Part shown: positions 8,322 through 49,289 of the stretch, piece by piece | Layout of the letters: every line of letters begins with the position of its first letter | How positions within the stretch are numbered: position 1 is the stretch's first letter | Origin: Bdellovibrionales bacterium | GTDB taxonomy: Bacteria > Bdellovibrionota > Bdellovibrionia > Bdellovibrionales > UBA1609 | Assembly (NCBI GenBank): GCA_050246815.1 | Contig: JBFWVI010000001.1 | Location: forward strand, 22,184-86,183 | Length of the DNA: 64,000 bases | Direction of reading: 5' to 3' | Notes under the pieces: model-generated | The model's input: the letters and a program-made list of their open reading frames with translations, nothing else | Database searches by the model: none | What the model was told of the DNA's origin: nothing | Made by a program: the position numbers and the translations under genes

Positions 8322-8969
8322 ATGGGTGCTGGCTCGGTTCAATTTTTGGTTTGTTTAATTGCGGCTGGTCTTTTGGCTGGCTGCGGTTCGCAATTTGGAA
8401 CCCGTCTAGCCCACGCGCCTGAGCCTTCCTGCGGTTTTTTTCAATCTCAAAGCGGGTACCGAGTGTCTTGGGCCTCGCGCACCCCCGTGCAACTAAATGT
8501 CAGTCAAAATTGGCCAAGCGAGTTTCGTGGCGCGGTTCAAGGCGCCGTCGACATTTGGAATTTGGCTCAAGACTACTCTTATATCTCTGTGAACTTTGAT
8601 TCGACAGCGGTGGGAGTAACTTCAGCGCCGGACTCTTTGAATGGTCTTTATTGGATGGAGACCTGGTCCGAAGAACGTTCGCGTGAGCAAGGTGTGACGA
8701 CTTTGCGTTTCAAAAATGACCGCGCCACCGAAGCCGATGTGCGGGTGAACGCCAAAAATTTTAGTTTTTACGATGAAACCCCCACCCATTATGGTCAGGT
8801 TCATATGGGCAGTTTGTTGGTTCACGAGTTTGGCCACCTTTTGGGTATGAATCATCGCAACACATATAGCAGTGTGATGTATCCTTATCTGGAGGCCAAC
8901 ACGATCCGTGTGCAATTGCTGCCGGTGGATTTGGAATCGCTTATCTGCGAATACGGAGCCAGTCGATGA
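8322..8969 (+). CDS. metzincin (matrixin-like) zinc metalloprotease lipoprotein
   Basis: Lipobox LLAGC, zinc site HEFGHLLGMNH (HExxHxxGxxH), and a downstream Met-turn SVMYP. Confidence 0.8.
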   Translation: MGAGSVQFLVCLIAAGLLAGCGSQFGTRLAHAPEPSCGFFQSQSGYRVSWASRTPVQLNVSQNWPSEFRGAVQGAVDIWNLAQDYSYISVNFDSTAVGVTSAPDSLNGLYWMETWSEERSREQGVTTLRFKNDRATEADVRVNAKNFSFYDETPTHYGQVHMGSLLVHEFGHLLGMNHRNTYSSVMYPYLEANTIRVQLLPVDLESLICEYGASR

Positions 8970-9595
8970 CAAATTTGTGGCGCTGGTGGGTCGGATTGGC
9001 GGTCATGATGCTGATTGCTGCGGGTGTTTGGTGGCTGGCACCTTCGATGTTCGCGCAGCGCAAACTGGCTTCAGAAAATGATCAGATTTTTGAAACGATC
9101 ACCTATGAAATTCAAGACACGCAAGATGAGAAACTTGTGCGTGATATTAAATTGCGTCTGCTGCAGCAAATGAATTGGCAACAGGTCGACGGCGATTGGC
9201 AACTGCAATTAGGCGCCTTTATGCTGCTGAAAGATGAACAGGTGCGAACCGATGCCTGCGCCAATTATAGTGCGGTGATCTACAATTTAGTGGCCTCTGG
9301 CGTGATCGTGGGGGGTGAGCGTCCCGGGTTGACCGTGACGGCCCCTTGCCAAGAGGTGAGTGGGTATTTGGTTTTGCCTAAGCTTTCATTGAGCCAGGTG
9401 CAAAGCCATGTGCAGGGGGCGAGCCAATGGCAGAGCGATCGCGCCCATTACATAGCCCATCGTTTAGACGAGGAGTGGTTCACCGAGTGGGACCTGAACA
9501 CCATCGAGCTTGTACCGGTCAGCCAGGCTCCGGCCATTTTGATCGATAGCATCGAAATTCAAGCCGTTCGCCCGGGTTTCGCGCCGATTCAATAA
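8966..9595 (+). CDS. membrane-anchored hypothetical protein
   Basis: 209 aa with an ATGA overlap with the protease gene and one N-terminal TM helix (WWVGLAVMMLIAAGVWWLA). Confidence 0.55.
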   Translation: MTNLWRWWVGLAVMMLIAAGVWWLAPSMFAQRKLASENDQIFETITYEIQDTQDEKLVRDIKLRLLQQMNWQQVDGDWQLQLGAFMLLKDEQVRTDACANYSAVIYNLVASGVIVGGERPGLTVTAPCQEVSGYLVLPKLSLSQVQSHVQGASQWQSDRAHYIAHRLDEEWFTEWDLNTIELVPVSQAPAILIDSIEIQAVRPGFAPIQ

Positions 9596-31037: not shown

Positions 31038-31898
31038 TTAGAATGGGAAAAATAATTTTCCGAAGATTGAAAGCATATGGCCAATTTCACGAATCAATTC
31101 TGGTCCCACGGTTATTGCCACGTATCCGATCCAGAGGACTCCGCCGGTCCACACTACATTCTGGCCGATTCGAATTGTCTTTTCGACGCCATTTTCCGTT
31201 GCGGTGACCTTCAAAACTTTTATCATAAAATCACTTTTTGTGACGTCACCAACAATTAATATTTGATCTGTTTGGGCGTTCGAGTTTTCCACCAAACTTC
31301 TAATAATGTCTTTGGATTGATCAAAAAAATCGTGATCAGTTCGAATGGGGCAATCAAGGCCTGTCTGCGCGCAATTTAAGATGTGGCTGATGCGAGCGTT
31401 ATTGTAGCTGCCAAAGCTTTTAAATTCGAAATTTGTCCATCGCCCAGGATTAAAGCTTGCAGCCAAAGATGCGGCGATCTCAGGGGTCTTCTGAAATTTA
31501 AATGCCAAACCGCTGGGCAATCGTGTGGCCTCCGTGACCTGCAAATAGGCGAGGGGGGGTGCCGAGCTCTGGATCAGGAGTGCAATATTTCGCCAGTCAT
31601 CCTTTGCGGAAACCGCTGGCGCTTCAAAGTCCTCGCCGTGAGCCGCCAAAATTTTTCCATCCGCGATGATATACATTTTGCCATCGGTATTGAAGCCAAC
31701 AACAACGTCACCAGGTTCAAGTAGCTCACTTACTTTCGGATTTTCGGCCTTAATTAACGCAAGATCGCATACTTTAGGATTAGTTCCTGCGGCTGGCTGG
31801 GGGGCCGCAAAGGATTGGCTCACAAGGGTATTCGCGGCCATTAGACAAATACCAAAGCGGAAAGTATTTCTTTTTAGTGAGCTTGTGATGCTTCTCAT
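31038..31898 (-). CDS. secreted/membrane hypothetical protein
   Basis: SD AGAGGGAAA upstream of ATG 31898. It has a signal peptide, a C-terminal TM helix, and GC lower than the flanks. Confidence 0.55.
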   Translation of the reverse strand: MRSITSSLKRNTFRFGICLMAANTLVSQSFAAPQPAAGTNPKVCDLALIKAENPKVSELLEPGDVVVGFNTDGKMYIIADGKILAAHGEDFEAPAVSAKDDWRNIALLIQSSAPPLAYLQVTEATRLPSGLAFKFQKTPEIAASLAASFNPGRWTNFEFKSFGSYNNARISHILNCAQTGLDCPIRTDHDFFDQSKDIIRSLVENSNAQTDQILIVGDVTKSDFMIKVLKVTATENGVEKTIRIGQNVVWTGGVLWIGYVAITVGPELIREIGHMLSIFGKLFFPF

Positions 31899-31962
31899 TG
31901 AGTTTCCCTCTTGGTCTATCAAATAAAATTAATTAACGTCCATTTCGCGCAGAGCCACTTTA

Positions 31963-32304
31963 TCAAGGCTTGTGTTCCAGAACGATTTTTTCTGTCTCAG
32001 CGCCGCCGCGCGCGCATTCGATTTTCAGATTGATTTTGTCTGCCGTGATCAATTCGGCCAGCTGCTCGGGAGATAAACCAACTGATTGGATTGCTTGACT
32101 TGAAATAAATAAAGTCGGCTTTCCTTCGGCTGCCGTTTCAACGACCAGCATTTGTTCTTTCGAAAGACCTAGAACCTTTGTGATGGTCGTGCCGTCGCCG
32201 TAATAAACACATTTGTTCAGAGGTATTAAGGCAACATCCGCTGCTGAATTTGTGGCTGCAAGGCTGAGGACAAAAGCGACGAATGTAGAGATTGGATTTA
32301 TCAT
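31963..32304 (-). CDS. small secreted hypothetical protein
   Basis: 113 aa with signal peptide ...LAATNSAADV. Confidence 0.5.
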   Translation of the reverse strand: MINPISTFVAFVLSLAATNSAADVALIPLNKCVYYGDGTTITKVLGLSKEQMLVVETAAEGKPTLFISSQAIQSVGLSPEQLAELITADKINLKIECARGGAETEKIVLEHKP

Positions 32305-32452: not shown

Positions 32453-33301
32453 TTACGGCTTCATGCAGTTCTCGCCTAGTGTTGCAGTCATGCCGGGTTT
32501 GATTTTGACTGAACACGTGCGAGTCTGATCAGATACCCGAATAAAATGCACATCCACTTGATCCGCGGCTTGGGGGATGTCCAAACTGACCCAGTGCTGT
32601 GTCATGGGGGCCAAATAGCGCGTTTTGATTTGAAAGCCGTCTTCTTCATAGTTCACCGGCGTTGACCGATTCACTTCGCGGCCCGATCCCGCCACAATCG
32701 CGTTGACCCCGCCAAAATCCACCAAGGTGCTGATGTGATCATGCCCCAAAAGAACGGCGGTTAAACGCTCGATGTTTTTCTTAAAGAAAGCACGCAGGCA
32801 GCGTTGAAACTTTTCTTTGCCACGCCAATCATGGCCGGCATTCAAATTAAAAGTGGGGTGGTGGTAAACCAAAAATACCAATTTTTCGGTGACTTTCTCA
32901 ATCTCTTCATCAAGCCAAGCACATTGTAGCTCAGCATTTTCGACATTGTCAGAGTTCAGAACAAGAAAGCGCGCGCCATTTTTTTCAGTGGAAAAGAATT
33001 CGCCGGGCATACCAAAATAATGAATTTCATTTTGATAACCTTTGTGATGGTTGCCTAAGGCCACCACGTCAAAGCGAAAACCCTCTCTTTTCCAGCGATC
33101 CCAGGTCCAGTTGTAGCGGCCGAAGTACAGATTGTCGCCGGGCAAGATCAAGGATTGGACTCTTTCAAGCCCTATAGAATCGCGCAGGTTGTCCAGATCT
33201 GTGCCTGTTAAGCCAGCATCACCAATAACCGCCATTCTGGCATCGGCAAAAACCGACGGACTGCAAAGAATAAGTGATAGCCAAACAAGCAAACGCGCCA
33301 T
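32453..33301 (-). CDS. secreted metallophosphoesterase (calcineurin-like)
   Basis: Motifs VIGDAG, LPGDNLY, GNHH and GHDH. Signal peptide MARLLVWLSLILCSPSVFA, with SD GGGAGGGG upstream of ATG 33301. Confidence 0.8.
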   Translation of the reverse strand: MARLLVWLSLILCSPSVFADARMAVIGDAGLTGTDLDNLRDSIGLERVQSLILPGDNLYFGRYNWTWDRWKREGFRFDVVALGNHHKGYQNEIHYFGMPGEFFSTEKNGARFLVLNSDNVENAELQCAWLDEEIEKVTEKLVFLVYHHPTFNLNAGHDWRGKEKFQRCLRAFFKKNIERLTAVLLGHDHISTLVDFGGVNAIVAGSGREVNRSTPVNYEEDGFQIKTRYLAPMTQHWVSLDIPQAADQVDVHFIRVSDQTRTCSVKIKPGMTATLGENCMKP

Positions 33302-33398
33302 AACCCCTCCCCAGGAAGTCACCTCCAACTTCAGCGCGAGAGGACTTAGTTGTAAAGAGGAACTTAGACAGGATTTGGTTTGTTTAAAAAATGAAGAA

Positions 33399-33854
33399 CT
33401 ATTTTCGCCCCTCAGTTTTGGGGCGTTTCACTTTCTTCTGGATTAAATGAGCACCCAGCACAAGCGGTAATGCCAGCCCAATCGCCCAATGTGCCAAGCT
33501 TGTCAGCTCCCGAAGTCGTTCATGAGAGACATAATAAAGCGCAACACCCGACAGCGACAAAAAAGCGTAAATCGCGTAAAGCGAAGCTCCGCTGCGGCGC
33601 TTATGCCGGCTGCGCCATTGCGGAATCACATGCAAGCCCGTCAAAGTGCCAAGTAAAAAAATCGAAAAGGCGGCCAGCCAACCATGCAGCTGTAAAACCT
33701 TGGCTTGTCCAGTCCAGCGCGAAGCGCCGAATTCATTTTCAAGGCGAACCCAGTTTTCCAAAACCAGCCAAACCAGTCCGCTCAGCAAAAGGGCGATTAA
33801 AACGCCGACGGCGCTCCAGAGCCAAACTTTAAGGGATTTCGAGGTCTTTACCAC
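33399..33854 (-). CDS. 4-TM His-rich membrane protein (DUF4405 / cytochrome-b-like candidate)
   Basis: 151 aa with four predicted helices. Conserved-looking His residues occur in LHGWLAAF, GLHVI, AHWAIGLA and GAHLI. It overlaps the ApbE stop by 7 nt. Confidence 0.6.
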   Translation of the reverse strand: MVKTSKSLKVWLWSAVGVLIALLLSGLVWLVLENWVRLENEFGASRWTGQAKVLQLHGWLAAFSIFLLGTLTGLHVIPQWRSRHKRRSGASLYAIYAFLSLSGVALYYVSHERLRELTSLAHWAIGLALPLVLGAHLIQKKVKRPKTEGRK

Positions 33855-34588
33855 CCGATGACTTCTGCTGGATTTTGGGAGGCCATGTCAAAAACAATCG
33901 CCCGGGCTGAATATTTGTTTAGGACTTCACCTTTTTGCGACCCCAAGCCAGCCACCACTTTGGTTAAGCCATCAGCCAATGCACAGGTTGGGGCCACAAC
34001 ACTAATCAAGGTTTCATTTGCAGAGGTTGAAATCCCGCGACTGGCGAAACGCTCACGCGAGGCATTTTGCAGGGATTGGGGTTTGGTCAAAGATGTGGCC
34101 AATGCCCCTTCTATGAGTTCAATTTCAGCTAAGGGTTGTGGACTTAAGGGGGATGCAATGGGGATCTTTTGCAAGCGTGGTCCGAAGGCCCTTAGATCGC
34201 CACCGGCATTCACCAAACCTTGTTTCACCCCAGCGGCCTTTAAAAAGTCGACGGCCTGATCCACGGCGTAGCCTTTGGCAATGCCGCCTAAATCCAATTT
34301 ATTGTTGGTGAAGGGGCAAAAAGAGCCATGGGAATTTTTAAAAAGATCGCGGGTGATGGCCAAAAGATTTTCACTCCAGGTGAAAGCGTCGGGGTTCATT
34401 TTTTCATTCAAGGAATGCAGCCAATTGCCTGGACGAAAAAAACTGGCCTCGCGGTCGATTTCCTCAATTAGCGAAAAAGCCTGGGTGATCAAGGGGTGTG
34501 CAGATTCTTCATCAAGCCCCTCAACCGTGATCGTGATGTAGGTGCCCAAAATTGGGCGTCGTCTATGGATTTTGTTTTGCGGGATCAT
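33848..34588 (-). CDS. apbE: FAD:protein FMN transferase (ApbE family), short form
   Basis: ILGTYITITV (cf. MGT..I.V), LGGIAKGYAVDQ and VNAGGDLRAFG motifs. At 246 aa it is shorter than typical ApbE proteins, and no obvious signal peptide is present. Confidence 0.8.
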   Translation of the reverse strand: MIPQNKIHRRRPILGTYITITVEGLDEESAHPLITQAFSLIEEIDREASFFRPGNWLHSLNEKMNPDAFTWSENLLAITRDLFKNSHGSFCPFTNNKLDLGGIAKGYAVDQAVDFLKAAGVKQGLVNAGGDLRAFGPRLQKIPIASPLSPQPLAEIELIEGALATSLTKPQSLQNASRERFASRGISTSANETLISVVAPTCALADGLTKVVAGLGSQKGEVLNKYSARAIVFDMASQNPAEVIGW

Positions 34589-35123
34589 AGTTTTTCAACA
34601 TATGCTGATAAAGCGACAACAGACGCTTTGCGCCTTCAGCCAGGTGACGGCAAGAAAGCGTCGCGCCCGAAATATTTTTGATGCTTTGATTAAATTGAAT
34701 GCTTTCCACCGAATTTTTACCAACAAACTGCTCGCGCCATTTGGCATCACGCACTTCATCGCCATAGCTTTCGCGGTACTCTAGGATTTCAATTCCCAGG
34801 ACTTTGCCACTTTTGTCGATCGCCATTGCGTAGAGGATATCTTCGTGCTTACCTAAAACGCGGTCCAATATAAACCAATCGTCTTCGTTCGAGCGCCAAA
34901 GGCGGGGTTGAATTTTAGGCCAACGGACTCCGCTTTCTTGCGCCACCAAAGCCCGAGTGACTTCGGGCAAGGCCAGAACCACTTCGCTTAATGTTTTTTG
35001 CGGCAAAAGAACATTTTGCGCCTGCTCTAGACTTAAGTAAGTTTCGGCGCCTGAGGCCGGTTGGGTGAAACCCGCGGCAATTGGAATTAAGAAAGTGGCT
35101 TGCGCGTAAGGCTTAAAATTCAT
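34563..35123 (-). CDS. FMN-binding domain protein (flavinylation substrate)
   Basis: FMN_bind motif NISGATLSCR. Signal-like N-terminus from ATG 35123 (MNFKPYAQATFLIPIAAGF). Confidence 0.7.
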   Translation of the reverse strand: MNFKPYAQATFLIPIAAGFTQPASGAETYLSLEQAQNVLLPQKTLSEVVLALPEVTRALVAQESGVRWPKIQPRLWRSNEDDWFILDRVLGKHEDILYAMAIDKSGKVLGIEILEYRESYGDEVRDAKWREQFVGKNSVESIQFNQSIKNISGATLSCRHLAEGAKRLLSLYQHMLKNYDPAKQNP

Positions 35124-35127
35124 GGCG

Positions 35128-35997
35128 TCACAGGGTCCAAGCCATAACCAAGCGGGTTTCATGCACTTCGTGTTCACTTAGGTGCAAGTTGTGTCGGCGG
35201 GAATGGTCATCCATCCAACCGTAAACTTGCGGCAAAAATGTCAAAGTCGCCCAAAAGTGCTTTTTTGCGTAGTGAATGTTTGGGCCTAAAAAAAGCGCAT
35301 AGTGTTCAATGGGAAATTCGGTGTCAGGATACTCCGAGTGGTAGCGGGCTTCAAGCCCGGCCATCCAATTTGAGCGCAAGCGGTAAGAAAGTCCTGTGGT
35401 GGCTTCCACCGCCAATTCGCTGGCGAAATCGTCCTCGCCCTCGAAGCGGCGCCATTCCCACTCGGGCGAGAAGTTGAAGGCAAAAATTAAAGTGTCATCC
35501 ATAAAGTTTTTTTGGAATAAAACCTTAAATTCGAAAGAGTACTCTTGCTGACGTTGGCCGGTGATTTTGAACACCGTTGAGTAGCCAGGCTCAAAGTAAA
35601 GTGAAAGTCCATACGGGTTTTGGTACGGGCTTTTTAAGTTGTGAACAGCGGCAAACTGCACGCCTTGAAAGTTGAAGGATTCACGATTGGCGTACTCGGG
35701 GTCACCATTTTCATCGGTGGGTGCGGCATTTTCAATCTTGTGGTAGCTTTGATTTAGATACATGGCCACAGCGGTTTTGTCGGTCCAGCCGTACTCAATT
35801 TCTTGGCGGATATCCAAGGCGCGATATTTGCCCGCGCCTTTGTTGGCGCGGTAAGTGGTCCAACTGTAAACTTCAAGGGCCCCTTTAGGGAAAGGCTCGG
35901 CCGTGTAGCTGTAGCCGAAGATTTTTTCGCCAGCAAAAGTGGGACAAGTCAGGGTCGTCGCGGCAATCAAAAACAAGACTGAAAGTAAGCGAAGCAT
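35128..35997 (-). CDS. putative outer-membrane beta-barrel protein
   Basis: 289 aa with signal peptide MLRLLSVLFLIAATTLTCPTFA and aromatic-rich alternating strands. Confidence 0.55.
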   Translation of the reverse strand: MLRLLSVLFLIAATTLTCPTFAGEKIFGYSYTAEPFPKGALEVYSWTTYRANKGAGKYRALDIRQEIEYGWTDKTAVAMYLNQSYHKIENAAPTDENGDPEYANRESFNFQGVQFAAVHNLKSPYQNPYGLSLYFEPGYSTVFKITGQRQQEYSFEFKVLFQKNFMDDTLIFAFNFSPEWEWRRFEGEDDFASELAVEATTGLSYRLRSNWMAGLEARYHSEYPDTEFPIEHYALFLGPNIHYAKKHFWATLTFLPQVYGWMDDHSRRHNLHLSEHEVHETRLVMAWTL

Positions 35998-36142
35998 CGG
36001 GGTCCTTTCAATTGGGTAACTTGGCTAACAGAAGTACGAATTGTGATTGGCAAAGTCAAAGAACCGGCCTAAACGACGAAGGTCGAAAATCTATTAAAAA
36101 GGTAAGGAAAACCAAATGAGAATGCGAGACGAAATGTCCCGC

Positions 36143-47053: not shown

Positions 47054-47196
47054 CGTGTGCTCTCCTGTATTTGAAAGGGCCGATTTTGCGGGTTAATCAT
47101 GGCGGCGCCAACTGATCGCGCCGCGCGTCATTCTCAATTGGGTTGCAGATGTTGAAAATGCTGCCCGGCGCCGAATCCCCAGATTAAGTTTCGCCA

Positions 47197-47433
47197 ATGA
47201 ATTTAAGCGAATGTCCCTTGCGTCAGCTGGCCGAAGTGACCGAGGTCAGCGGCGACGCCCACTTGAGACATCGGTTGATGGACTTAGGCATTTACGCCGG
47301 AGTGTTGGTGGAAGTGGTGGGTGCGATGCCTTTTTCGGGACCATTGATTATTCGCGCCCAGGGCGCCACCTTGGCGTTACGCCGTGGAGAAGCTGCGTGC
47401 ATTCAAGTGCAGGCCCGCAAAACGTTATCCTAG
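47197..47433 (+). CDS. feoA: ferrous iron transport protein A
   Basis: 78 aa, FeoA/SH3-like: LRQLAEVTEVSGDAHLRHRLMDLGIYAGVLVEVV. Confidence 0.8.
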   Translation: MNLSECPLRQLAEVTEVSGDAHLRHRLMDLGIYAGVLVEVVGAMPFSGPLIIRAQGATLALRRGEAACIQVQARKTLS

Positions 47434-49289
47434 TCGGTCCACCCAACTCGGGTAAGACGACCTTGTTTAATTGGCTGACGCATTCGCGTTTTCGCGCGGT
47501 CAATTATCCCGGCTCCACCGTGGATTGTTTACGTGGCCACAGCCATGCTAGCTTTGGCCGTGCATTGAGTTTGATAGATTCACCCGGAATTTATGGCTTG
47601 CGTGCCGAAGCTCAAGACGAGCAGATCACTTTAAAACTACTTCATTTCGACAACTCTATGGGGCACTTGGACGCGGCCATCGTGTGTGTGGACAGCACCC
47701 AACTGGATCGTCATCTGCCTTTGGTTTTAAAATTGAAAAACATGGGGTGGCCCCTGGCTGTGGCGTTGACCATGCGCGATTTGGGGCAAAGCTCAGGGCA
47801 GCGGATCGATCGTGTTGAGCTTGAAAAATTGTTGCATACACCGGTTGTGGAAATTGATGGCCGTACCGGCAGTGGAGTCAGTGAGCTGATGGACCAGGTG
47901 CGGGGTCTGTCATCTTTAAAATCGGATACTGTGAAAGTTGCGAAACCACCGTTGGACGAAGCCAGTGTGGCGAAACAGGTGCAGGAGTGGTTGACACGTA
48001 TTCGTCAATCGCAGGCCCAGATGAAAGGGCCGGCCCAAACCACGGCGAATTTGGATCGCTGGTTACTTCATCCATTTTGGGGCTTGCTTGGCTTTGTGGC
48101 TGTGATGGTGGCGTTATTCACGGCCGTATTTTGGTTGGCGGATCCGTTGATGGGTTGGGTGGATCAGGGCTTTAGCGCCTTGGGCGGAGCTTTGCATCAA
48201 GTTGTAGGCGCGGGACTTTGGGCCGATTTCTTGGCCGATGGAGTGGTGGCAAGTTTTGCCGCAGTTTTGGTTTTTGTGCCGCAAATTCTAATTTTGTTTT
48301 TTGGCTTGGGATTGCTTGAAGACTCGGGCTATTTAGCACGGGCGGCGACGTTGATTGATCGGCCTTTGTCTTTTGTGGGTTTGAGTGGACGAGCTTTTGT
48401 ACCACTCCTTTCGGGATACGCCTGCGCCGTACCGGCGATCATGGCGGTCCGCACGATTCGATCGTCGCGCGAGCGCTGGCTGGCTATTGCTATAATTCCT
48501 TTGCTTTCATGTTCGGCACGGTTACCAGTTTATGCTTTGCTTTTGGCTTTTTTATTTCAAGGGCGACCGGCCTGGCATTCAGGCCTTGCTTTGGCCGCGA
48601 TATATTTGGGCTCGGCCGTGGTCAGCGCCATGGCCGCAGCACTTTTGAATCGTTTGGTGCAAGGCGGGGGGGCTTCGACATTCTTGATGGAATTGCCCTT
48701 TTATCGTCGGCCACAAATGGCGATCGTGATTCGCCATGCGCTGACCCGTACCCGGGGGTATGTGCGGCGCGCGGGGCCGGTGATTTTTTGTTTGGCTTTA
48801 GTGCTTTGGGCCGCCACGACGTTTCCGCGGCCAGAAGCGGATGTCGCAAGTTCTGAGGCCGTTCGGCAAAGTTATGCGGGTCAAGTGGGGCAGTGGATCG
48901 AGCCGGTGTTCAAACCCTTGGGTGTGGATTGGCGTGTGGGGGTCGGGCTGCTTTCGGCCTTTGCCGCCCGCGAAGTTTTTGTCTCGGCTTTGTCGCTGGT
49001 TTTTGACGTCACAACCGAAGGCGATGAAGCTGGAATACGTCAGACTCTTTTGCACAGTATGCAGCAGGCACGGTTCACGGACGGCCATTTGATTTTCACG
49101 ACGGCCTCTGTTTTGGGGCTTATCGTATTCTTTATGATTGCGTTGCAGTGCAGCTCAACTGTGGCTATCGCCGCGCGAGAAATGGGCAGTGTGCGCTTTG
49201 CGGTGGGTCAACTGGTGGTCTTAAATGTGGTGGCGTATTTGGCCGCTGCGTGCGTGGTTCAAGTCGCCACATTTTTTGGTTGGGGTTAA
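47397..49289 (+). CDS. feoB: ferrous iron transporter B
   Basis: G-domain VGPPNSGKTTLFN followed by a polytopic membrane domain. GTG 47397 is the likely start; the ORF-track start 47211 would overlap all of feoA. Confidence 0.88.
   Translation: MHSSAGPQNVILVGPPNSGKTTLFNWLTHSRFRAVNYPGSTVDCLRGHSHASFGRALSLIDSPGIYGLRAEAQDEQITLKLLHFDNSMGHLDAAIVCVDSTQLDRHLPLVLKLKNMGWPLAVALTMRDLGQSSGQRIDRVELEKLLHTPVVEIDGRTGSGVSELMDQVRGLSSLKSDTVKVAKPPLDEASVAKQVQEWLTRIRQSQAQMKGPAQTTANLDRWLLHPFWGLLGFVAVMVALFTAVFWLADPLMGWVDQGFSALGGALHQVVGAGLWADFLADGVVASFAAVLVFVPQILILFFGLGLLEDSGYLARAATLIDRPLSFVGLSGRAFVPLLSGYACAVPAIMAVRTIRSSRERWLAIAIIPLLSCSARLPVYALLLAFLFQGRPAWHSGLALAAIYLGSAVVSAMAAALLNRLVQGGGASTFLMELPFYRRPQMAIVIRHALTRTRGYVRRAGPVIFCLALVLWAATTFPRPEADVASSEAVRQSYAGQVGQWIEPVFKPLGVDWRVGVGLLSAFAAREVFVSALSLVFDVTTEGDEAGIRQTLLHSMQQARFTDGHLIFTTASVLGLIVFFMIALQCSSTVAIAAREMGSVRFAVGQLVVLNVVAYLAAACVVQVATFFGWG

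Follow-up and report, generated by a model that had tools for sequence, protein, structure and literature searches.

A conserved four-gene cassette of a DUF6662 barrel, an FMN_bind protein, a leaderless ApbE and a small His-rich membrane protein, with a possible role in reductive iron uptake

Results

Gene layout of the locus

The minus strand of a 64-kb stretch of a Bdellovibrionales genome (64,000 nucleotides of contig JBFWVI010000001.1, assembly GCA_050246815.1; the whole stretch is hereafter called the window) carries, between positions 32453 and 35997, five co-directional open reading frames (ORFs). In order of transcription, they encode an outer-membrane barrel of the DUF6662 family, an FMN_bind protein, an ApbE-family protein, a four-helix transmembrane (4-TM) protein with paired histidines and a metallophosphoesterase-like protein (Table 1). 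An earlier reading of this DNA from its letters (the sequence-only reading) had described five co-directional genes with overlaps or tiny gaps, and all five are confirmed at the coordinates of the table. For the FMN_bind gene the ATG at 35123 is the most plausible start: it gives the protein a Sec-type signal peptide and leaves a gap of 4 nt after the barrel gene. The FMN_bind gene overlaps the ApbE gene by 26 nt, and the latter overlaps the 4-TM gene by 7 nt; the gap between the 4-TM gene and the phosphoesterase-like gene, reported earlier as 97 bp, is indeed 97 nt when counted from the ATG at 33301. Directly 3' of the 4-TM stop codon a consensus scan recovered a terminator-like hairpin with a weak stem, which probably marks the end of an operon. 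An identical copy of the 4-TM protein is on record from a Bdellovibrionales metagenome-assembled genome. An Rfam scan of the window region gave no match.

Table 1. Positions of the cassette genes and associated features. Numbers refer to the window unless a locus is named.
Feature	Positions	Strand	Remarks
DUF6662 outer-membrane barrel	35128-35997	-	289 aa; Pfam PF20367
FMN_bind protein, longest ORF	34563-35177	-	204 aa; Pfam PF04205
FMN_bind protein from likely ATG at 35123	34563-35123	-	186 aa; Sec-type signal peptide
Codon of the predicted flavinylated Thr (FMN_bind)	34659-34661	-	within KNISGATLSCRH
ApbE-family protein	33848-34588	-	246 aa; Pfam PF02424
4-TM protein	33399-33854	-	151 aa; no Pfam match
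Terminator-like hairpin and T-run	33392-33414	-	consensus scan only; weak stem
Metallophosphoesterase-like ORF, longest	32453-33328	-	291 aa
Metallophosphoesterase-like gene from ATG at 33301	32453-33301	-	motif blocks; weak similarity
Candidate operator CATTCTCATTTGG	36112-36124	-	115-127 nt 5' of barrel ATG
FeoB ferrous-iron transporter	47211-49289	+	692 aa; Pfam FeoB_N, Gate, FeoB_C
Candidate leader RNAs in other loci	L048:6187-6273, L049:6977-7065, L050:7855-7938, L054:7774-7860
Candidate leader RNAs in other loci, continued	L060:7882-7968, L064:7767-7851, L027:5356-5425, L076:529-645

Synteny and limits of the conserved unit

In order to delimit the conserved unit, an alignment of DUF6662 proteins was scanned against 185,579 species genomes, which yielded 68 loci; ORFs were called in all of them and searched by jackhmmer with the five window proteins. 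The barrel, FMN_bind, ApbE and 4-TM genes occur together in 45 of the 68 loci, nearly always in this order and tightly packed. Eight further loci, mainly from Methylophilaceae, encode the barrel, the FMN_bind protein and the 4-TM protein, with ApbE absent, and four contain partial sets (two of them on cut contigs). The barrel stands alone in the remaining 11, two of which are cut contigs and seven of which encode very distant homologues (23-29% identity) from Myxococcota and Fibrobacterota. Carriers of the cassette belong to the Verrucomicrobiota, the Alpha-, Beta- and Gammaproteobacteria, the Acidobacteriota and the Bdellovibrionota. Given its recurrence in 45 of 68 independent loci, the four-gene arrangement is far from chance. 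Synteny in relatives had been set beforehand as a test that could refute the sequence-only reading, and the four-gene order holds across at least five phyla. Flavinylation-associated extracytosolic electron-transfer clusters, as defined in Meheust et al. 2021, unite in one conserved cluster ApbE, a flavinylation substrate that is exported and a protein for electron transfer across the membrane, all of which the cassette encodes.

Clustering of the flanking ORFs of all loci revealed no further family in more than six of them, and the co-directional neighbours sampled around the cassettes are unrelated housekeeping genes. No homologue of the phosphoesterase-like protein was found in any other locus then fetched, including the Bdellovibrionales locus L007. 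The conserved unit thus comprises four genes rather than five, and the phosphoesterase, which had earlier been grouped with the cluster, was discarded as a fifth member: it is not syntenic, and the terminator-like hairpin follows the 4-TM gene. Its product carries motif blocks read from the sequence (GDAG, GDNLY, GNHH, HHP, GHDH), has no Pfam match and has as its only database support a weak similarity to purple acid phosphatases (E 0.01). It is best described as a predicted secreted neighbour of the cassette, outside the conserved unit.

Some loci (L006, L017, L041) harbor a tandem pair of DUF6662 genes, and in L021 the gene order is rearranged to FMN_bind-barrel-ApbE-4TM. Downstream of the phosphoesterase-like gene, on the minus strand of the window at 31038-32304, lie two ORFs of 113 and 294 aa with hydrophobic N-termini, for which neither a Pfam or NCBIfam family nor a homologue in related loci was found.

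The FMN_bind protein

The FMN_bind protein matches Pfam PF04205 with 37.6 bits against a gathering cut-off of 22 (E 3.6e-9) and shares 36% identity with a homologue from Undibacterium. Its S-G-A-T site, recognized in the sequence-only reading, spans residues 170-173 of the 204-aa ORF, so that the predicted acceptor is T173, or T155 when counted from the ATG at 35123. This Thr was checked in 61 homologues and is invariant in them, within a nearly invariant motif D-[IV]-x-N-I-S-G-A-T-L-S-[SC]-[RK]-H. All 61 homologues also carry a short cleavable signal peptide of the A-x-A type immediately before a YL(S/T)xEQAQ mature N-terminus, as judged by eye rather than with SignalP, and a twin-arginine motif was found in none of them. 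The protein is predicted to be exported and to be a substrate for covalent FMN attachment. NCBIfam searches with the window proteins returned matches to RnfG/NqrC and ApbE only, all far below threshold.

A leaderless ApbE with an altered active site

The ApbE-family protein matches Pfam PF02424 with 94.7 bits against a cut-off of 25.6 (E 9e-27), and its phmmer matches include the solved ApbE structures 6NXI, 1VRM and 5MGY. The sequence-only reading had remarked on its short length (246 aa) and its lack of an export signal, and both traits are real. A stop codon precedes M1, so that the ORF cannot be extended upstream, and there is no room for a signal peptide because the conserved core (RRRP-ILGT) begins at residue 9. 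The cassette ApbEs were aligned as a set of 48 sequences of at least 220 aa, one of which is a frame-disrupted ORF fragment; every one starts at most 20 residues before RRARP-LLGT and none has a hydrophobic leader. The missing export signal is thus a conserved trait of the whole cassette clade, and the short length of the window copy is explained by the loss of about 40 residues that are retained in the other cassette ApbEs. A hidden upstream start with a signal peptide was also considered and rejected, the ORF being closed by the stop codon in the window and the upstream read-through elsewhere not being hydrophobic.

Cassette ApbEs retain the DLGGIAKG, NAGGD and ATS motifs and the metal-binding Asp. 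In Vibrio cholerae ApbE the catalytic residues are S241, H257 and D285, H257 acting as the general base (PMC12052999), and in Treponema pallidum Ftp_Tp the Mg2+ ligands are D284 and T288 and the general-base His is H256 (PMC4436053). A check of the catalytic triad in the window ApbE recovered the Ser (in ATS) and the Asp (in ADGLTK), and found the His to be absent; the canonical H-x-x-D-P motif is not conserved in the cassette clade. Four residues after the Asp, at the position of the Mg-ligand Thr, cassette ApbEs carry an invariant Lys (ADALTK).

The only candidate substrate of the cassette ApbE is the FMN_bind protein, which carries a Sec signal in every locus, while its co-encoded ApbE never carries an export signal. 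The combination of a leaderless ApbE of altered active site with a Sec-exported substrate raises the question of where and how covalent flavinylation happens. ApbE enzymes modify short tags, and the favoured guess is that the C-terminal motif would receive its FMN in the cytoplasm, while still unfolded and not yet translocated; if true, flavinylation before export would remove the need for a periplasmic supply of FAD. Possibly, instead, the cassette ApbE has another role and the flavin is attached in trans by a periplasmic ApbE. The eight cassettes devoid of ApbE, which still keep the SGAT site, show that a reaction in trans must be feasible. A programmed frameshift or readthrough yielding an FMN_bind-ApbE fusion, and with it an exported ApbE, was likewise rejected. 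The spacing of the two genes ranges across loci from same-frame abutting through overlaps of 4 nt and of 17-26 nt to gaps of 13-52 nt, the frame varies, and in L021 the barrel gene stands between them; ordinary translational coupling is favoured over fusion.

The 4-TM His protein

Searches of Pfam with the window 4-TM protein gave no match at E<=1. An initial search for relatives recovered six proteins, one named DUF4405 by NCBI and one with a precomputed cytochrome b561 match. A profile search of 1.84 billion representatives then retrieved 2135 clusters (50% identity) at E<=1e-3 and 1354 at E<=1e-10, all of them proteins of about 140-200 aa. The four histidines of the window protein, H57 (LHGW), H75 (GLHV), H122 (AHW) and H136 (GAHL), had been singled out in the sequence-only reading as pairs whose conservation should be checked: among 156 aligned representatives H57, H75 and H122 are invariant and H136 is present in 155. 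Scans with single members of the family (E<=0.01) gave weak matches to Ni_hydr_CYTB for 20 of 76 and to DUF4405 for 12 of 76.

The AlphaFold2 model (pLDDT 91.8) consists of four long helices with a beta-hairpin in the first loop, and places the His pairs on helices 2 and 4. By the positive-inside rule H57/H122 would lie near the periplasmic face and H75/H136 near the cytoplasmic face, a layout as expected for two stacked b haems. In Foldseek searches HyaC (hydrogenase cytochrome b) and cytochrome b6 rank first with non-significant E-values, and the sequence profile found nothing in the Protein Data Bank (PDB). The 4-TM protein appears to be a remote, four-helix miniature relative of the DUF4405/cytochrome b561 di-haem proteins, and is predicted to be an inner-membrane di-haem b cytochrome. 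The earlier guess of a DUF4405 or cytochrome-b affiliation fits the family, whose members weakly match PF14358 or PF01292 and are in some cases named DUF4405 by NCBI; the window protein itself has four helices and no Pfam match.

In the window protein, the cytoplasmic loop contains the sequence R-S-G-A-S. The idea that the 4-TM protein is itself flavinylated was nevertheless rejected, a [ST]GA[ST] motif occurring there in just 9 of 156 family members and in one of 60 cassette copies. At the periplasmic end of helix 1, the window protein has Glu33 (codon at 33756-33758) where 111 of 156 family members have His. A weak match of the 4-TM profile at 8966-9595 of the window was dismissed as spurious, the protein encoded there not being of the multi-helix His type.

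The DUF6662 barrel

The product of the first gene, described earlier as a beta-barrel-like secreted protein, is borne out as such by several lines of evidence. It matches Pfam PF20367 with 91.5 bits against a gathering cut-off of 27 (E 9e-26), and its signal peptide comprises residues 1-22, with cleavage after TFA. The AlphaFold2 model (pLDDT 92.4) has 12 beta-strands, preceded by an unstructured, highly conserved segment that follows the signal peptide and contains the invariant sequence (A)-x-E-x-x-F-G-Y. The best Foldseek matches are outer-membrane barrels, namely FapF (E 3e-8), the COG4313 channel 4RL8 and NanC, with a TM-score of about 0.6; some DUF6662 members also match the Pfam families OMP_b-brl and Phenol_MetA_deg.

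Invariant residues of the barrel are mostly Glu, Arg, His and Tyr and occupy alternate strand positions opposite a hydrophobic face (for example E42-Y44-W46-T48-R50 and D62-R64-E66-E68). With the orientation inferred for the strands, these residues probably face the lumen and would give it a strong charge. The sequence-only reading had cast the barrel as the terminal partner in electron transfer. It lacks any flavinylation or cofactor motif, and is probably a channel rather than a redox partner; a role as flavinylation substrate, like that of DUF3570, was discarded when no SGAT-type motif was found on reading the barrel sequence.

Association with iron genes

Upstream of the barrel gene, at least 13 of the 19 positions of the 19-bp Fur consensus are matched in 15 of 50 loci, compared with 2.4% of random 150-nt windows of the same loci and 2.5% of shuffled sequences of that length. 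Methylophilaceae, Steroidobacteraceae, Sinimarinibacterium and Dyella/Luteibacter have textbook Fur boxes, at a distance of 25-80 nt from the start codon. Iron genes also adjoin the cassette itself. In the Thermoanaerobaculia locus L079 a single strand encodes, in this order, fur, feoA, feoB, a 79-aa gene, DUF6662, FMN_bind, ApbE and 4-TM. A Bacteriovoracia locus from the phylum of the window (L078) has a ferritin-like gene 16 bp 5' of DUF6662, preceded by the palindrome TGAGAATGATTCTCA; FeoB adjoins the cassette in two Bradyrhizobium-like metagenome-assembled genomes (L048 and L054), and ferritin-like genes lie downstream of it in two Methylotenera loci (L014 and L015). No copper or manganese genes were seen among the cassette neighbours sampled.

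In the window, the 13-mer CATTCTCAWTTGG occurs in exactly two copies, one upstream of the cassette (36112-36124) and one at 47129-47141, about 70 nt upstream of the FeoB gene (feoAB), in a region that carries CATTCTCAATTGG. The cassette copy is the candidate operator of Table 1 and contains the Fur half-site ATTCTCA. The Bdellovibrionales locus L007 has TCATTTGG at a similar upstream position. The FeoB of the window (phmmer E 5e-107), encoded 11 kb from the cassette, has about 70 residues before its FeoB_N domain, which may be a fused FeoA-like segment. By analogy with the Feo adjacency in L079, L048 and L054, this transporter is a possible downstream partner of the cassette.

Eight Verrucomicrobiae/Chthoniobacterales loci (L026, L029, L030, L032, L034-L036 and L059) carry a block GCTAATAATTGGCAAnCGACCGGCAGC about 40-45 nt 5' of the barrel ATG and no Fur box; this block may be the site of another regulator.

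A sister cassette and a candidate leader RNA

The wider 4-TM family led to a sister cassette with the order CCP_MauG, Porin_O_P-like, FMN_bind, leaderless ApbE and 4-TM, found in all seven places examined (L001, L074-L077, L080 and L081; for example L075:625-5504). Its CCP_MauG protein is a di-haem cytochrome c peroxidase, and its Porin_O_P-like protein has about 440-480 aa. Neighbouring genes include hemP in three places, a P19 Iron_transport gene in one and ferritin in one. The Porin_O_P-like protein has homologues of about 490-570 aa in the alphaproteobacterial loci L048, L050 and L054, where they are encoded ahead of FMN_bind-ApbE-4TM.

In eight loci, RNAalifold detected a candidate structured 5' leader upstream of the barrel (or CCP) gene (Table 1). 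It consists of two direct copies of AGCCAGCC with a hairpin between them, followed by a second hairpin with compensatory changes. After it, a GGCTGGC extends over the ribosome-binding site and the ATG; each of the two GCCAGCC copies is complementary to it, and the element looks like a switch. It matches no Rfam family and is absent from the window. The Hyphomicrobiaceae locus L049 has a glycine riboswitch (RF00504, 60.8 bits) at 8930-9042, a short way downstream of the barrel and FMN_bind genes; it is probably that of the adjacent gene.

Discussion

A proposed role in reductive iron uptake

With a probability put roughly at 55%, the cassette is a self-contained, iron-linked periplasmic electron-transfer module for reductive iron uptake, its genes from 35997 to 33399 (barrel to 4-TM) forming one operon. 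In this proposal the 4-TM protein would bind two b haems, one between H57 and H122 on the outer side and one between H75 and H136 on the inner side, and would move electrons across the inner membrane from the quinol pool or a cytoplasmic donor. These would pass to the soluble, Sec-exported FMN_bind protein, to which the co-encoded ApbE would attach FMN covalently at the invariant Thr of NISGATLS. The periplasmic flavoprotein would reduce Fe(III) entering via the DUF6662 channel, and the resulting Fe(II) would be taken up by FeoAB, encoded in the same window. Haem binding, the direction of electron flow, the Fe(III) substrate and the barrel as the entry channel for Fe(III) are all parts that we infer. 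The core of the sequence-only reading, an extracytosolic electron-transfer module of ApbE and FMN_bind with a b-haem-type membrane protein and an outer-membrane barrel, is supported by the invariant His and Thr residues and by synteny; a link to iron was no part of that reading.

Several points weigh against this proposal. The evidence for iron comes mainly from relatives rather than from the window, in whose cassette promoter a canonical Fur box was sought and rejected, the best 19-mer matching just 11 of 19 positions and a half-site alone being present. The 13-mer shared with the feoAB region was found post hoc, with an estimated chance probability of about 0.01. Adjacency to Feo, ferritin or hemP genes is seen in a minority of loci, most neighbours being housekeeping genes. 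As to the proteins, the barrel, the supposed entry for iron, is narrow, with 12 strands, and the window 4-TM protein belongs to no Pfam family and matches cytochrome b folds non-significantly. The ApbE, devoid of signal peptide, general-base His and Mg-ligand Thr, may not be a flavin transferase at all, and the window copy, with its additional deletion, could be decaying.

Alternative explanations

The doubt whether the ApbE is a transferase leads to an explanation, judged unlikely, in which the leaderless ApbE-like protein would be a cytoplasmic FAD-binding subunit for electron input or flavin handling, docked on the cytochrome, and a separate periplasmic ApbE would flavinylate the FMN_bind protein. 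The absence of a signal peptide from all aligned ApbEs, the loss of the catalytic His, the replacement of the Mg-ligand Thr by an invariant Lys, the overlap with the cytochrome gene and the retention of the SGAT site in the eight barrel-FMN_bind-4TM loci without a cassette ApbE would all fit such a role. However, the DLGGIAKG, NAGGD and ATS motifs and the Asp of ADALTK are conserved, and in Klebsiella a leaderless ApbE of the cytoplasm does act as a transferase (PMC12052999). Moreover, if the protein were a core electron-input subunit, cassettes without ApbE should not occur, yet they do.

Other explanations keep the electron-transfer module and change its purpose. It might power oxidant or peroxide defence, or reduce a small oxidant, iron regulation then reflecting protection against Fenton chemistry. 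In favour of such a role, the FMN_bind-ApbE-4TM core of the sister cassette is in every case preceded by genes for CCP_MauG and a porin-like protein, and there is a precedent in MsrPQ, where a b-type cytochrome feeds a periplasmic repair enzyme (PMC11334425). It is considered unlikely for the DUF6662-type cassette, which contains no gene for a peroxidase or other catalytic reductase and whose fur-feoAB linkage (L079) and FeoB adjacency point instead to iron uptake. Reduction of Cu(II) or Mn, or a reversed flow in which Fe(II) is oxidized and electrons are taken up through the barrel, seems improbable. A barrel with an acidic lumen would be suited to any cation, Acidiferrobacteraceae and Nitrosomonadales are among the carriers, and one published account (PMC13038864) links related haem-containing PepSY_TM proteins to copper supply for oxidases; against this, Fur boxes, feoAB, ferritin and hemP mark iron acquisition and storage, and the neighbours sampled include no copper or manganese genes. 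Finally, the cassette could be pictured as a conduit for extracellular electron transfer, with the FMN protein threaded into the barrel as in an MtrAB-like porin-cytochrome complex. Such systems have a barrel in the outer membrane, a redox protein in the periplasm and a cytochrome in the inner membrane, a part list which the cassette resembles. This is nonetheless very improbable, as a 12-strand barrel of the FapF/COG4313/NanC kind is too narrow for a folded 17-kDa domain and one FMN cannot span the periplasm and the outer membrane.

Comparison with known systems

Flavinylation-based extracytosolic electron transfer has been recognized recently and is widespread, most of its gene clusters having no assignment yet. 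Its general logic, in which ApbE is combined with a flavoprotein that is exported and a cytochrome in the membrane, often with a link to iron, is already known. What is unusual in the cassette is the consistently leaderless ApbE of altered active site and the dedicated small outer-membrane barrel. A full-text literature search returned no paper mentioning DUF6662, and neither cassette was described in what was found for hemP together with cytochrome c peroxidase, ApbE and porin, or for ApbE together with FMN-binding and Fur. In published flavinylation surveys, systems were recognized by way of Pfam matches, which the window 4-TM protein does not give (PMC11334425 and others).

Among its components, the barrel resembles FapF and the COG4313 channel (Pput2725) in fold, both being 12-stranded outer-membrane channels (Foldseek E 3e-8 to 1e-6), but shares just 7-11% sequence identity with them. 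The invariant Glu, Arg and His residues assigned to its lumen suggest a cargo that is polar or cationic, and not peptides or hydrophobic molecules. The FMN_bind protein has its fold family and the S-G-A-T acceptor motif in common with NqrC and RnfG. These, however, are membrane-anchored, whereas the cassette protein is predicted to be soluble once its signal peptide is cleaved; its resemblance to them is very weak, with NCBIfam scores far below the cut-offs, and no subunit of Nqr or Rnf accompanies it.

Haem b binding and an association with flavinylation have been shown for DUF4405 proteins, which were described with six helices (Huang, Meheust, Barquera and Light 2024, PMC11334425). Like them, the 4-TM protein is a small membrane protein with four conserved transmembrane His residues, encoded beside apbE and a flavinylation substrate; a transmembrane electron-transfer role is proposed for both, and NCBI labels some 4-TM relatives DUF4405. 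It differs in having four helices and no Pfam match, its relatives match cytochrome b561 (20/76) more often than PF14358 (12/76), and its partners are an FMN_bind protein and an outer-membrane barrel instead of the Flavodoxin_4 protein and flavin transporter of DUF4405 systems.

The cassette ApbE shares the ApbE domain with the canonical periplasmic ApbE/Ftp lipoproteins of V. cholerae (6NXI) and T. pallidum (4IFU), including the Lys of GGIAKG, the Ser of ATS and the metal-binding Asp, but has no lipoprotein signal, no general-base His and a Lys in place of the Thr at position T288 of the T. pallidum protein. The cytoplasmic ApbE of Klebsiella pneumoniae is similarly leaderless and is a true transferase, which flavinylates a soluble fumarate reductase (PMC12052999). 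Its substrate is cytoplasmic, whereas that of the cassette ApbE is Sec-exported.

At the level of the whole system, the use of inorganic Fe(III) by Bradyrhizobium japonicum requires FeoAB and an unidentified reductase (O'Brian laboratory, PMC10760861), for which the cassette is a candidate. A more far-reaching proposal, put forward only tentatively and with doubt, holds both that the cassette ApbEs are a distinct clade flavinylating the NISGATLS motif of the unfolded pre-protein on the cytoplasmic side before Sec export, and that the cassette is the 'unknown' ferric reductase through which inorganic iron reaches FeoAB, for example in Bradyrhizobium. The cassette is common in soil and freshwater bacteria, and offers a compact candidate route by which iron could be reduced and taken up without siderophores.

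Earlier work has implicated flavinylation clusters under Fur repression in the reduction of iron (PMC8238504). The PepSY-like ferric reductase clusters of FoxB and FsrB and the Caulobacter cluster CC_3059-3063 (DUF2271 and ApbE) combine, like the cassette, ApbE with a haem protein of the inner membrane and a flavinylated protein of the periplasm; they are iron-repressed and their periplasmic Fe(III) reduction feeds FeoAB, as in the FsrB-FeoAB pathway of Bradyrhizobium, and the cassette is likened to them on both counts. The membrane families, by contrast, are unrelated, being of the COG3182/PepSY_TM type in those clusters and a 4-TM mini-cytochrome in the cassette, and the flavinylated domain of the PepSY-like clusters differs from FMN_bind. 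Those clusters use TonB-dependent receptors and an ApbE treated as extracytosolic, whereas the cassette pairs a small barrel with a leaderless ApbE.

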